Below, in pieces: positions 55,271-59,076 of a stretch of DNA of 64,000 nucleotides. The DNA is from Escherichia coli (GTDB taxonomy: Bacteria; Pseudomonadota; Gammaproteobacteria; Enterobacterales; Enterobacteriaceae). The stretch is from the NCBI RefSeq assembly GCF_044324875.1, contig NZ_CP172185.1; one strand, given 5' to 3'. Numbering within the stretch: the stretch's first letter is position 1; the number at the start of each line of letters is the position of its first letter. Below the pieces are notes generated by a model. The model was given only the letters and a program-made list of their open reading frames with translations. It was not told where the DNA came from and searched no databases. A program made the translations under genes and the position numbers.

Positions 55271-55534
55271 ATGAAACCGAATATCCATCCTGAATACCGT
55301 ACTGTGGTGTTCCACGATACCAGTATCGATGAGTACTATAAAATTGGTTCGACCATCAAGACTGAACGTGTGATTGAGCTTGATGGTGTCACCTATCCGT
55401 ACGTAACTATTGACGTTTCCTCTAAGTCGCATCCTTTCTACACCGGCAAACTGAGAACTGTTGCTTCAGAAGGTAACGTGGCGCGCTTTAACCAGCGTTT
55501 CGGGCGTTTTGTTGACACCAAAAAAGGTGCCTGA
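55271..55534 (+). CDS. rpmE2: 50S ribosomal protein L31 type B (zinc-independent paralogue)
   Basis: [87 protein letters not shown], near-identical to recalled E. coli YkgM; no CxxC zinc motif. Confidence 0.85.
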
Positions 55535-55576
55535 CCAGAAATTGATCACAGGCGCGCTTGATACGCAAAAGTATTA
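55464..55576 (+). repeat. Left copy of a ~110-bp imperfect direct repeat (3' end of rpmE2 plus about 45 bp downstream) flanking the methyltransferase/nuclease/ccdAB cassette
   Basis: ...AGAAGGTAACGTGGCGCGCTTTAACCAGCGTTTCGGGCGTTTTGTTGACACCAAAAAAGGTGCCTGACCAGAAATTGATCACAGGCGCGCTTGATACGCAAAAGTATT versus 58859-58970 with about 10 substitutions. Confidence 0.8.
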
Positions 55577-55603
55577 TTTGTATTATTTCTGATATTTTAT
55601 TTC

Positions 55604-55624
55604 AAAGGCGGTATTTACCGCCTT
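55604..55624. terminator. Hairpin between convergent rpmE2 and nuclease genes
   Basis: aaaggcggta-ttt-accgcctt. Confidence 0.4.
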
Positions 55625-55640
55625 AATTAGTTTTATCCGT

Positions 55641-56813
55641 TTATTTATTTCCTTTTGAACGATTATGCGTAACGCAAAGCATTTCGCAATTATCAGGCTT
55701 ACTTTCACCCCCCTTACTCCATGCGGAAACATGGTCGGCTTCCATTTCTTTCAAAGCCCAGATTTTTGTTTTATTGGCATTATCTGAACTGGCGCAAAGG
55801 GGGCAGTTTGAAATACCTTGTTGCTCCGCTTTATCTGTTTGCCTTTTGTAGGCTTGTTTTTTAATTTTTTCATCAAAAAAGCGAATGTTTAATAAACGTT
55901 TATCAGATTGACCACCTAACACATATTCCCAGATGCCTTTAATGTTTTTTACACTATCATCCTGATATAATTTATTGATTTGCGTGGCTAATTCACCTGG
56001 ATTGTATGGTTTGTCTTTATAGGTTTCGTATAAACGCCCCCATTCCAGTCCGCACATTTCTTTTTTTACCTCGGTAAATGTGGTGTTAACCCAGTCAATC
56101 ACGCTATTGAAATAGGTTTTTAATTCCTTGATATTGTCATCATTACGATGGGCATTCATGTATTCGCTGATATTTCCTTTACTGACCCAGTTTAACGCAC
56201 ATTCTAAAATTTCCTGGCGTTTAACATTACCTTTGATGTAAGCACTCCATTTTTGCACATTTGAATTAGCAGAATTACTGAATTCTGCTTTTGCCAGTGT
56301 AACAAATTTGCCCGAATACACCGCATTCAATAATTCTTGTTCATTTAAAGGGACGCCAGTAATATTAATCGTTTTAAACCATTCTTTAATTTCGCTTTCT
56401 GTACCCTTACATTTGTAAATCAGCAAAGTGGTTTGTTTGATTTTCTCTTGTTGGTCTTGCGGTAAACTATGGAAATAGTATGGCGTGCCTTTATCATCTA
56501 TAATGGCGAATTTTCCGGTAACAAACCGCCCAATACTGGTAATGCGCTGCTGACCATCCAGTACTTCAAATGTATCTTCTGTATCTTTGTCAGGTTGATT
56601 AAAATAAATCAAACCGAGCGGATAACCTTTTAATACTGACTGGATAACTGCCACATCTTTCTTACCGTCTGCATAAATATAATTGCGTTGATATTCGGGC
56701 TGAATGGTAAGCTTTCCTGATAAACCAAACAAGCCTTTTCCCTCCAGTTCATTATAAACAAATCCATCGCACAATTGTTCAACGGTGATTGATGTATCTA
56801 ATTGTGTTTTCAT
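55641..56813 (-). CDS. DUF262 (ParB-like, DGQQR motif) N-terminal domain fused to a C-terminal HNH nuclease; putative restriction/effector component
   Basis: ...[16 protein letters not shown]... near N-terminus; C-terminal CPLC...[33 protein letters not shown] matches the HNH pattern C-x2-C...DH..p.skGG...N..LC..HN..K. Confidence 0.8.
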
Positions 56814-56828
56814 TTTTCACTTTTCCTT

Positions 56829-57983
56829 TTATTTATTTTGTGGATTGATGTGTTTAATAAGAATGCGTCCATAAGTACGTTTGCCGTTAATAACTGTACA
56901 CCCACCCCTATCTTCAGAATGTTGAGAATAATTTAAAATCTCCAGTATCTCTTCGGGAGTTGATGCTCGTGTATTACCACTTGCTTGCCAAATAATTTCA
57001 AACTGTTCAGGACAATATTTATCCAAAAAGCTAATTGGCACGCCCATAACTCCTGCATAATCGCTAGGAATACCGTTAGTTCTGGGCACTTCAATAGCAT
57101 CATAATTGTCATATGCCTGATAAGCGTTAGGGTCATTGATAATTTGTTTGTTGTATTTTAAATTATCCGCCATAGACATTAGCTGTAAAGATTGATGCCG
57201 TCTGCCGTGTTCAATATTGGTAAACCAACAAGAGTTACCCAAACGAGTATAATCACCTATATATCCTAGACGCTCCGCTTTTTTCTTATCAGCTTCCCTC
57301 ACATCAGCACCTTGTGGTACAGCAAAAACCATATCATTACCATTCCCAGTAGCACCCAACCAAATTTTATTTCCTTTGATAAGTGGAAAAATCTCTTTAT
57401 AAGTAATAGCATTCATATTACCGATAACGGCAAACTGCTTTTTACCTTCCATAATCCATGCCATAAATTCGCGAAACAGCGAAAAAGGCGGATTGGTGAT
57501 AATTATGTCGCTTTCATCGCGTAGAGCTTTGATTTCATCACTACGAAAATCGCCATCACCCTGCAGGTATTGCCATTTAATATCTTTAAAATCAATTACA
57601 CCATCGTGATTACTGTCTTCGGTTAGCGTGTAAATTTTGCCATGTTTCTGGCTTTTATCACTGTCGTATTGTTCACTTTCGCTTTCAAATAATGATGGCT
57701 GATAAGCTGTGTTTAACTGTTTGGATTGATGAGCGTAGCTGGTACTGATGAGCTTCTTTAATCCAAGTCGTTCAAAGTTTTGTGCAAAATAAAGTGTGAA
57801 ATTGCTCCACTCGGGGTCATCACATGGTAAGAGAATGGTTTTGCCACGAAATACGTCTTTATTGAAATCAAGATAGGCATTCATCTCTTTTTCAATATCA
57901 TGGTATTGGGTGTAAAATTCGTCATTTTTGGCTTTTTTTGCAGCAGAAAGATTACTGTTTTTGGCAGAAATATTCTTTGACAT
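56829..57983 (-). CDS. N6-adenine DNA methyltransferase, EcoRI-methylase-like
   Basis: ...NDEFYTQ... near N-terminus and catalytic ...DIIITNPPFSLF... (NPPF motif IV); GGAGG RBS; 15 bp upstream of and co-oriented with the DUF262-HNH gene. Confidence 0.8.
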   Translation of the reverse strand: MSKNISAKNSNLSAAKKAKNDEFYTQYHDIEKEMNAYLDFNKDVFRGKTILLPCDDPEWSNFTLYFAQNFERLGLKKLISTSYAHQSKQLNTAYQPSLFESESEQYDSDKSQKHGKIYTLTEDSNHDGVIDFKDIKWQYLQGDGDFRSDEIKALRDESDIIITNPPFSLFREFMAWIMEGKKQFAVIGNMNAITYKEIFPLIKGNKIWLGATGNGNDMVFAVPQGADVREADKKKAERLGYIGDYTRLGNSCWFTNIEHGRRHQSLQLMSMADNLKYNKQIINDPNAYQAYDNYDAIEVPRTNGIPSDYAGVMGVPISFLDKYCPEQFEIIWQASGNTRASTPEEILEILNYSQHSEDRGGCTVINGKRTYGRILIKHINPQNK

Positions 57984-58024
57984 TTCAAACCTCCAAAACA
58001 GTATTGAAGGTTTGAAAAAACGGG

Positions 58025-58152
58025 GTTACATTATGCTTGTTGCTTGTTGCTTGTTGCTTGTTGCTTGTTGCTTGTTGCTTGTTGCTTGTTGCTTGTTGCT
58101 TGTTGCTTGTTGCTTGTTGCTTGTTGCTTGTTGCTTGTTGCTTGTTGCTTGT
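58025..58152. repeat. Heptanucleotide tract: about 17 copies of GCTTGTT (AACAAGC on the gene strand) with one 3-bp GTT irregularity
   Basis: Read directly; lies between ccdB stop (58212) and methyltransferase start (57983), beginning about 40 bp upstream of the methyltransferase ATG. Confidence 0.9.
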
Positions 58153-58211
58153 ATTAGCATTGGATTTTCCCTTTTACTTGTCAAGTATTTTCTTTTGGAT
58201 TCTGAAGTTTT

Positions 58212-58538
58212 TCACGTATTCGTAACGATGGCATCAAGTGCAGCGATAATTTCATTTCTGGATGAAGAAATATTACATATAAAATCTTTGCTGTTTATTT
58301 TTTTTGCATCCAGGAACGTGAGCGCCGGGGTGAACACATAGAAATCCGATGTCTCTATTTTAACTAATGGCGTTATCCTTTTCTTTTTAAGCTCAATATC
58401 ATTTTTTGATACCAGAGGCACGACTATCCTTGTGGTTAAATCGTCAAAATAATCATTCTGGAGAATAAGGTAGAACGGCCAGAGTTTATTCGTTCTGACC
58501 GATGGATTGCGGTATACATCAAATTGCTTTGGCATCAC
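58212..58538 (-). CDS. ccdB: CcdB-family gyrase-inhibitor toxin
   Basis: ...QFDVYRNP...FYLILQNDYFDDLTTRIVVPLVS... and C-terminal ...SSRNEIIAALDAIVT parallel recalled F-plasmid CcdB (QFKVYTYK...RMVIPLAS...SHRENDIKNAINLMF). Confidence 0.7.
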   Translation of the reverse strand: MMPKQFDVYRNPSVRTNKLWPFYLILQNDYFDDLTTRIVVPLVSKNDIELKKKRITPLVKIETSDFYVFTPALTFLDAKKINSKDFICNISSSRNEIIAALDAIVTNT

Positions 58539-58783
58539 AGACTCCCAAAGAAATCGTCATCCGTCAACATTCCTGCTTTTGCCATAAATTTATTCATAGT
58601 GTGCATATCCTGTTTTTCTTCTTCCCGCTCTACAGTTTTGGCCTCGATAGCCTGTGCCAGAAGGTTATCCAGTGTTGCCGACAGGTTCATGTCCATACTC
58701 CGGGCTTTATCAACCAGTGAGGCCGTCAGGTAAACGTTGGTGCTTCTTTTGTTGCTGTTACGAGTGGTGGCAACTGTATTCAT
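58535..58783 (-). CDS. ccdA: CcdA-family antitoxin
   Basis: AGGAGC RBS before ATG 58783; 82 aa; ...NVYLTASLVDKARSMDMNLSATLDNLL... RHH-like; ATGA overlap with ccdB. Confidence 0.65.
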   Translation of the reverse strand: MNTVATTRNSNKRSTNVYLTASLVDKARSMDMNLSATLDNLLAQAIEAKTVEREEEKQDMHTMNKFMAKAGMLTDDDFFGSL

Positions 58784-58858
58784 TATGCTTGCTCCTGTGC
58801 GCAGATGTATGCGCATAATTATGATGGGGGAAGGATAAACAATCAAGTGTGATCCTTC

Positions 58859-58970
58859 CGTTAGAAGGTAATGTGGCATGCTTTAACCAGCGTTTCGGGT
58901 GTTTTGTTGACACCAAAAAAGGTGCCTGATCAGAAATCGATCACAGGCGCTATTGATATGCAAAAGTATT
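58859..58970 (+). repeat. Right copy of the ~110-bp direct repeat: displaced 3' fragment of rpmE2 (last ~21 codons, with substitutions) plus downstream sequence
   Basis: ...GAAGGTAATGTGGCATGCTTTAACCAGCGTTTCGGGTGTTTTGTTGACACCAAAAAAGGTGCCTGATCAGAAATCGATCACAGGCGCTATTGATATGCAAAAGTATT. Confidence 0.8.
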
Positions 58971-59052
58971 GCTTGAGTGTCTGAGGTCGGTTATTTTATG
59001 TTTCACAAGTAAAGAAGCATTTAAAAAGAAACTCACAGTCCATATTCCTTCA

Positions 59053-59076
59053 TCCCCGGTTACGGGGATTTTTTTT
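59053..59076 (+). terminator. Rho-independent terminator (probably the native rpmE2 terminator displaced by the cassette)
   Basis: tccccggttacgggga hairpin followed by TTTTTTTT. Confidence 0.6.

Follow-up and report, generated by a model that had tools for sequence, protein, structure and literature searches.

The rpmE2 locus and its cassette

The stretch of Escherichia coli DNA considered here (64,000 nt of contig NZ_CP172185.1, hereafter the window, in whose numbering all coordinates are given) carries rpmE2, the gene of a type B ribosomal protein L31, followed by an inserted cassette whose four genes encode a putative Type II restriction-modification (R-M) pair and a CcdAB-family toxin-antitoxin pair (Table 1). 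The cassette lies between two imperfect direct copies of the rpmE2 3' end, the left one (R1) within and beyond the intact gene and the right one (R2) downstream of the inserted DNA. A repeat search of the window placed these copies at 55461-55580 and 58856-58975 (120 nt, 88% identity, spacing 3,395). In the best register 101 of 112 positions are identical, with 11 substitutions and no indels, and the match is too strong to be due to chance (E = 3e-38, blastn-short). The repeat comprises the last 21 codons of rpmE2 (63 nt), the stop codon (repeat positions 64-66) and the 46 nt that follow, and includes a 29-nt block (positions 38-66) in which R1 and R2 do not differ. An earlier note on this DNA, made from the letters alone, had described imperfect direct repeats of about 110 bp with no recombinase between them, and both statements hold: the list of open reading frames (ORFs) and the Pfam and NCBIfam scans gave no recombinase or transposase between the repeats, and the four genes fill the insert.

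Comparison with related elements bears out an insertion at the 3' end of rpmE2. The repeat is present as a single copy in at least 11 related loci examined (among them L001, L086, L089-L091, L093, L094, L096 and L097, where L numbers denote loci of related elements). In these empty sites the native intrinsic terminator stands about 120 nt past the rpmE2 stop codon; in the window it has therefore been displaced 3.4 kb by the insertion, as the earlier note had recognised. The same note held that only a weak hairpin follows the intact gene. The hairpin at 55605-55624 does have a poorer T-tail than the native terminator, but it passes the terminator-like scan and belongs to the cassette; it is predicted to substitute now as the rpmE2 terminator. 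No Chi site occurs within 54000-61500, and no terminal inverted repeats were seen at the cassette ends in the junction sequences.

All four cassette genes lie on the minus strand, the methylase and nuclease genes in the same orientation with a gap of 15 nt. The methylase gene is directly upstream of the nuclease gene in 74 of 80 distant homologous nuclease loci, so the two form a conserved pair. They are best described as a putative Type II R-M pair, DUF262/HNH proteins also including modification-dependent enzymes. Sequence searches of the PDB with both enzymes returned nothing, and neither solved nor named relatives were found. The antitoxin gene ccdA precedes ccdB, and the two overlap by 4 nt. 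Because the CcdB match of 26 bits falls below the NCBIfam cutoff of 147 for the F-plasmid equivalog, membership in ccdAB is assigned at the level of the family only.

The base composition and the affinities of these genes suggest that the cassette is of foreign origin. The GC content is about 36-38% over the R-M genes and ccdB and reaches about 44-45% at the right end, in ccdA, against mostly about 45-58% in the flanking sequence. The closest relatives of the R-M proteins (76% amino-acid identity) come from Alysiella, [Haemophilus] felis and Moraxella, whereas ccdAB alone has relatives of 86-89% DNA identity on enterobacterial plasmids; in the plasmid collection only the ccdAB part was found and never the whole cassette. 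With separate relatives for its two halves, the cassette appears to be a composite of two addiction-type modules.

Table 1. Features of the rpmE2 locus and its surroundings, in window coordinates
Feature	Coordinates	Strand	Basis or remark
Inserted cassette, 3,283 bp, the span between the repeats	55581..58863		Same ends in STEC-type element; absent from empty sites
Restriction nuclease (putative), 390 aa, DUF262/GmrSD_N + HNH	55641..56813	-	PADLOC REase_II 3.1e-86, full length; Pfam PF03235, PF01844
N6-adenine DNA methyltransferase (putative), EcoRI family, 384 aa, NPPF motif	56829..57983	-	PADLOC MTase_II 7.2e-96; Pfam PF13651 (EcoRI_methylase)
ccdB-family toxin gene	58212..58538	-	Pfam PF01845; weak NCBIfam CcdB match, 26 bits
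ccdA-family antitoxin gene	58535..58783	-	Pfam PF07362
Promoter-like site of ccdA, TTGATT-17-CATAAT	58846-58818	-	Promoter-like scan
Heptamer tract, (TGCTTGT)17 on +, (ACAAGCA)n on gene strand	58034..58152	-	Between ccdB and methylase gene, inside leader ORF
RNA hairpin, 14 bp, over methylase Shine-Dalgarno (GGAGG) and A of AUG	57983..58017	-	-17 kcal/mol, z = -3.9; inverted repeat in the repeat search
rpmE2, type B ribosomal protein L31, cargo of the host element	55271..55534	+	NCBIfam NF002462, 121.6 bits vs cutoff 86
R1, left repeat copy	55469..55580	+	Aligns to single copy of empty-site loci
R2, right repeat copy, 5'-truncated rpmE2 remnant + 46 nt	58864..58975	+	Continuous with native downstream sequence
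Native rpmE2 intrinsic terminator, hairpin + T-run	59052..59076	+	Terminator-like scan; directly after rpmE2 in empty sites
Cassette left-end hairpin, between convergent rpmE2 and nuclease genes	55605..55624	+	8-bp stem, 5 pairs GC
Integrase_1/Phage_int_SAM_2 gene	61883-62839		In empty-site and STEC-type elements alike
DUF3268 zinc-finger gene	63583-62843	-	In empty-site and STEC-type elements alike
STAXI RNA motifs	60945-61117 and 63740-63911		Rfam, 85 and 83 bits
EFASI RNA	61642-61764		Rfam; just upstream of integrase-domain gene

Host element and distribution

The locus is part of the cargo of an integrating conjugative element (ICE) of E. coli. Upstream of it are genes for TIGR03757 and TIGR03756 proteins, TraU and TraG_N, and downstream the Integrase_1-domain gene, the DUF3268 zinc-finger gene and ardA. 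By gene content, on which the family name rests, the element would belong to the pKLC102/PAGI-2-type family, where ICEEc2 of avian E. coli has been placed (as cited in PMC11537424).

Among 5,426 complete E. coli genomes the arrangement of the window is present in two (CM2 and TUM1886), rpmE2 is joined directly to the right-flank sequence, that is, empty, in about 33, and the cassette core occurs without rpmE2 flanks in four. In a larger assembly collection the arrangement of the window is frequent, with about 1,400-1,600 indexed blocks for each of the nuclease, methylase and CcdA proteins in exact form and 6,700 for the exact rpmE2 protein, annotated as WP_000803993.1 in relatives. One genome, GCA_027274645.1, carries two ICEs of this family, one filled (L092, which has 21 heptamers and over 13.5 kb shows no other difference from the window), the other empty (L093), so that the opportunity for cassette exchange exists. 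A truncated form is present at L106/L124 (GCA_030142865.1, CP126293.1), where the methylase gene, the nuclease gene and the left repeat are retained, the right repeat and ccdAB have given way to other DNA, and there are IS1 copies in the vicinity.

The same cassette in a diverged ICE lineage

Elements of the Shiga toxin-producing E. coli (STEC) type (L002, L084 and L085), related to SpLE1 of O157:H7 Sakai, are about 83% identical to the window in their backbone (traG, rpmE2 and the integrase-domain gene). The cassette that they carry is 96-97% identical to that of the window, retains the left-end hairpin and ends within a few bases of the same points (left at about 55578-55589, right exactly at 58863). 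Between it and an intact rpmE2, about 5.4 kb downstream, are hsdMS and traT; direct repeats flanking these copies were looked for and none found. The cassette has moved between ICE backbones and, with the same ends and so much higher an identity than its surroundings, would have done so as a discrete unit. A cassette without flanking repeats is the arrangement that the earlier note had itself reckoned as telling against its own proposal, integration at a specific site by an element that carries a diverged copy of its target.

A young insertion in L098

A second filled site next to rpmE2, at L098 (GCA_027275365.1; the same place as L113), supplies what the window does not, a recent product. Over about 3.2 kb its cassette has no mismatch to that of the window, from which it differs only by three 1-nt indels and the heptamer count. 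When the cassette is removed in silico, the remaining sequence has no mismatches to the empty loci L090, L094 and L097 over 2 kb to the right and differs by about 0.3% to the left. Both L098 repeats carry the recipient allele: R2 agrees with the empty allele throughout, R1 over positions 1-95 (95 of 95 nt), only the last 17 nt beside the cassette being window-like. The switch points, one before position 9 and one between 89 and 96, differ from those of the window. L098 and the empty loci thus appear to be a before-and-after pair with an exact 95-bp target duplication.

The structure of this product bears on how it arose. A reciprocal exchange with the window-type copy at a fixed core is not supported, because there is no element-type half in each of the L098 repeats, and a simple double crossover in the flanks is not supported either, because the donor repeats did not come along. 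The simplest single event would be an ends-in (Campbell-like) insertion in which the repeat is restored from the recipient.

The mosaic repeats of the window

The repeats of the window itself record an older history. The empty allele agrees with R1 at positions 9, 15, 16 and 37 and with R2 at positions 75, 89, 96, 108 and 109, the empty alleles themselves being polymorphic at position 88. At positions 36, 60 and 63 R1 and R2 share states that are not found in empty alleles. The four changes peculiar to R2 are all C:G to T:A transitions and all lie in the non-functional coding remnant, while those peculiar to R1 are all downstream of the rpmE2 stop codon. The R2 states T9 and A15 are also present in STEC-type rpmE2 alleles.

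The flanks indicate that this end of the locus has its own ancestry. Compared with L090, the closest empty locus, the window differs by about 0.5% up to 55056 and by about 4-5% from 55408 on, the divergent stretch taking in three synonymous rpmE2 sites that precede the repeat, then the repeat and the right flank as far as about 60800. From this divergence it follows that a single block, belonging to another lineage, is made up of the 3' half of rpmE2, the cassette, R2 and the right flank. Across all empty loci the right flank does not vary, even where their backbones are diverged, and it differs from the window type by 3.9%. No empty site with a window-type right flank was found, which argues that the cassette and the right flank (the block at about 55400-60800) travel together. 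The states shared at positions 36, 60 and 63 are as expected if the target belonging to the lineage of the block was the one duplicated. Complementary decay of a duplicated target and an element-borne diverged copy would fit the mosaic equally well. An interpretation of the mosaic as proof of a single Campbell crossover was withdrawn, the 5' part of R1 not being simply recipient-derived but part of the one diverged block.

A predicted translational phase switch

Between ccdB and the methylase gene lies a tract of tandem heptamers, of which the window has 17. In 22 assemblies the copy number ranges from 4 to 21 among cassettes that are otherwise 98.5-100% identical, with the reservation that long-read assemblies may miscount. 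The tract lies inside a leader ORF that starts at an ATG at 58160 (minus strand), preceded by AAGGG, and runs through the heptamers. Two of the leader frames end at a TAA just past the tract, and the third crosses the hairpin that covers the methylase Shine-Dalgarno sequence, to end at a TGA separated by 1 nt from the methylase ATG. A copy number that is a multiple of 3 is needed for the ORF to reach this TGA; with any other number the ORF stops 42-47 nt upstream, short of the hairpin. Tract, leader ORF and hairpin together probably constitute a translational phase-variation switch, and with 17 copies the window is predicted to be in the OFF frame.

The same layout is present in Alysiella crassa (L004), whose methylase is 62% identical: (AACACGC)8, followed by TAG and TAA stops, a Shine-Dalgarno hairpin with two compensatory pair changes relative to that of E. 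coli, and the arrangement "TGA G ATG". An Acinetobacter relative has (GAACAGC)7 inside the methylase ORF instead. Among the relatives of the R-M family the design of hairpin and repeat tract was found only in the E. coli cassette and Alysiella, and most others are without it.

How the cassette may move

What the comparisons show is the insertion and its empty site, the duplication, the set of genes carried, transfer of the cassette from one ICE backbone to another, and a case (L098) with the recipient allele in both repeats. The most probable account is that of a selfish, recombinase-less module of R-M genes, CcdAB and phase-variation tract, which inserted after rpmE2 with a target duplication of about 112 bp and moves by a homology-dependent route. 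Such a route would begin with a circular or linear intermediate of the cassette, set free when the two repeats recombine or are broken. Carrying homology to the rpmE2 3' end at both of its ends, pointing inwards, such an intermediate would invade another copy of the ICE at its lone rpmE2 3' end in an ends-in, Campbell-like reaction involving host RecA, and gap or mismatch repair would copy the recipient allele into both repeats. Once inserted, the cassette may be stabilised by ccdAB and the R-M pair through the killing of cells that lose it, and the heptamer tract would toggle translation of methylase and nuclease. Dependence on homology is what we infer from these comparisons.

Several points weigh against such a pathway. 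Neither a circular or tandem junction nor the predicted chimera was found in the 5,426 complete E. coli genomes, a weak objection since such forms rarely assemble; for a contiguous element-type repeat (5' half of R2 with 3' half of R1) the only near match in these genomes was R1 itself. Metagenome contigs, scanned for the chimera and for any junction of right end to left end, gave no matches, a result that is uninformative and is not counted as an objection. The 10% divergence between the repeats of the window calls for an old event or else for a diverged copy carried by the element, and the first arrival at rpmE2 from the repeat-less STEC-type context is left unexplained. The role of RecA is one that we infer only. 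L098 could instead be the product of two or three separate gene conversions. Moreover, it is one assembly, probably long-read, in which frameshifts may be sequencing errors, as may the methylase frameshift that L098 has in common with L111.

Among other explanations, one that seems unlikely is insertion driven by restriction-modification, double-strand breaks made at or near the repeat by the nuclease of the cassette or by another one both releasing the unit and opening the recipient, and repair duplicating the target. Double-strand breakage, which is common to all R-M types, was suggested as the mechanism, with a "virus-like life cycle" of R-M units, by Furuta, Abe and Kobayashi (2010, NAR 38:2428, PMC2853133), who also state that release and re-infection are without direct evidence or experimental support. 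Cleavage of both repeats at one shared site would give exactly the ends-in substrate described above, and the exact duplication in L098 fits; however, no recognition site can be assigned to an enzyme with neither solved nor named relatives, and in most copies, that of the window included, the predicted state of nuclease translation is OFF.

A more far-reaching reading, which we consider unlikely, would make the cassette an autonomous selfish unit with a full life cycle in a genetically tractable host, one that excises and re-inserts at the rpmE2 3' ends of co-resident or incoming ICEs by way of breaks in its own flanking repeats, with the heptamer, leader ORF and hairpin acting as a switch on translation. 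If true, it would offer the first chance to observe release and re-infection in the R-M "virus-like life cycle" put forward in 2000-2010, and would add a previously undescribed phase variation by translational coupling for a Type II system in E. coli.

The earlier note had preferred site-specific integration, in which a decayed or non-autonomous element with its own att copy is moved by a tyrosine recombinase acting in trans, for example the Integrase_1 protein encoded 3 kb away. The repeats of the window lend themselves to this in being mosaic relative to empty sites (R1-like at 9, 15, 16 and 37, R2-like over 75-109), in sharing an identical 29-nt block, and in that the R2 states at 9 and 15 occur in other rpmE2 alleles. 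In L098, however, both copies carry the target allele, which leaves no element-borne half-site, and the switch points are unlike those of the window; the STEC-type copies do without flanking repeats altogether; and the contiguous element-type site was found nowhere in the E. coli genomes or the metagenome contigs. As to the recombinase, the genes at 61883-63583 that the note had proposed as mobilising the cassette in trans are conserved ICE backbone, present in empty and diverged lineages with or without the cassette, and nothing links either the integrase-domain gene or the DUF3268 gene to it. Site-specific integration is accordingly improbable.

Least probable of all is an ancient local duplication whose paralogous segments received the cassette between them by other means and whose empty sites are secondary deletions, for even if the 10% divergence of R1 and R2 is similar to the neutral level between ICE lineages (6 synonymous differences in 130 nt of rpmE2) and a deletion between the repeats would also give the observed mosaic single copy, none of the at least 11 empty loci carries the duplication without the insert, their identical right flank across diverged backbones speaks for ancestral sites rather than independent deletions, both copies share the lineage-specific states at 36, 60 and 63 as if the target of one lineage had been duplicated, and the duplication in L098 is young and exact.

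Other features of the region

At least three diverged ICE lineages, SpLE1 of O157:H7 Sakai (ECs_1330) among them, have a type B (zinc-independent) L31 gene as conserved cargo; elsewhere rpmE2 lies at 17463-17726 in L085 and at 2803-3066 in L088. Homology between lineages stops exactly at the rpmE2 stop codon, beyond which STEC-type elements continue with a hok/gef gene. The best promoter-like match of the region (TTGATA-17-TATTAT, 10/12; 55558-55586, plus strand) falls within the diverged 3' portion of R1 and faces the cassette, in antisense orientation to the nuclease gene, such sites being at chance level in the region.

The spacer from traG to a 190-aa gene (53756-54345) is a replacement hotspot: almost all of the approximately 150 differences between L104 and the window fall within it, and STEC-type elements have unrelated genes there (e.g. 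pemK). To the right of the cassette, the ORF at 60122-60802 (minus strand, GC 27-30%) is predicted to encode a 226-aa membrane protein, with lengths of 188, 217 or 226 aa across elements, and its product gave no family match. Direct repeats of about 250 bp around the integrase-domain genes were considered as recombination sites and rejected, being copies of the STAXI RNA (Rfam). The arrangement of STAXI and EFASI around the integrase-domain and DUF3268 genes is conserved in all three ICE lineages examined.

Comparison with known systems

Three kinds of system resemble the cassette in part. Integrative and mobilizable elements (IMEs) and cis-mobilizable elements (CIMEs) are att-flanked, lack a recombinase or share one, and are mobilised in cis or in trans by an ICE. 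The cassette is likewise a small recombinase-less module with direct repeats, in an ICE and at the 3' end of a gene. It differs in that there is no fixed att core, one lineage is repeat-less and both repeats can carry the target allele; on these grounds, and with no recombinase of its own and no att bounds on every copy, it probably does not belong with such elements.

Variable cargo hotspots of ICEs, such as those of SXT/R391, carry anti-phage defence genes, and here too a fixed intergenic position in a conserved conjugative backbone is occupied by a defence system, the system varying between otherwise similar elements. The exchange of cargo through flanking homology leaves no duplication, whereas here 112 bp are duplicated. 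Phasevarions, phase-variable R-M systems with simple-sequence repeats, are known in Haemophilus, Neisseria and Moraxella. They share with the cassette a hypervariable short tandem repeat beside the methylase gene, and its nearest R-M relatives are in those families, some with related heptamers. Here, however, the tract is in an upstream leader ORF before a hairpin that would mask the ribosome-binding site, not in the methylase ORF or its promoter, the system is putatively Type II and the host is E. coli. Given the number of indexed blocks (about 1,400-1,600), an R-M system of the Neisseriaceae/Pasteurellaceae type, with its putative switch by simple-sequence repeats, is widespread in E. coli.

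The closest counterpart is the class of R-M insertions with long target duplications (Nobusato et al. 2000, Gene 259:99; Furuta, Abe and Kobayashi 2010), in which an insert of less than 20 kb contains R and M homologues and no mobility gene, and is flanked by direct repeats longer than 30 bp, both aligning to one copy in a genome with the empty site (PMC2853133). By its structure the cassette is a member, because it has R and M homologues in 3,283 bp without a mobility gene and a 112-nt repeat that is single in empty sites. The likeness extends to the low GC content of the insert and to a repeat that spans the 3' end of a gene with its stop codon, as in the published Haemophilus influenzae cases (PMC2853133). 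Most of the published cases are in naturally competent species (PMC2853133), whereas the host here is E. coli; the cassette is inside a conjugative element and co-packaged with ccdAB and a phase-variation tract; its repeats in the window are 90% identical, as against 93-100% in most published cases; and there is a second instance of the identical cassette, with an exact duplication, in another backbone (L098).

How R-M units insert with long target duplications has been unsolved since 2000, and the present system is experimentally tractable: the host is E. coli, and donor, empty recipient and an apparently fresh product (L098) are available, with only the cassette as the difference. Since filled and empty elements are co-resident, dependence on recA, the nuclease and the integrase could be tested directly. 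The comparisons also show that defence and addiction modules pass between ICE cargo regions as small separate units. Within the class of R-M insertions with long target duplications, whose mechanism is unsolved, the cassette is a new and well-documented case.

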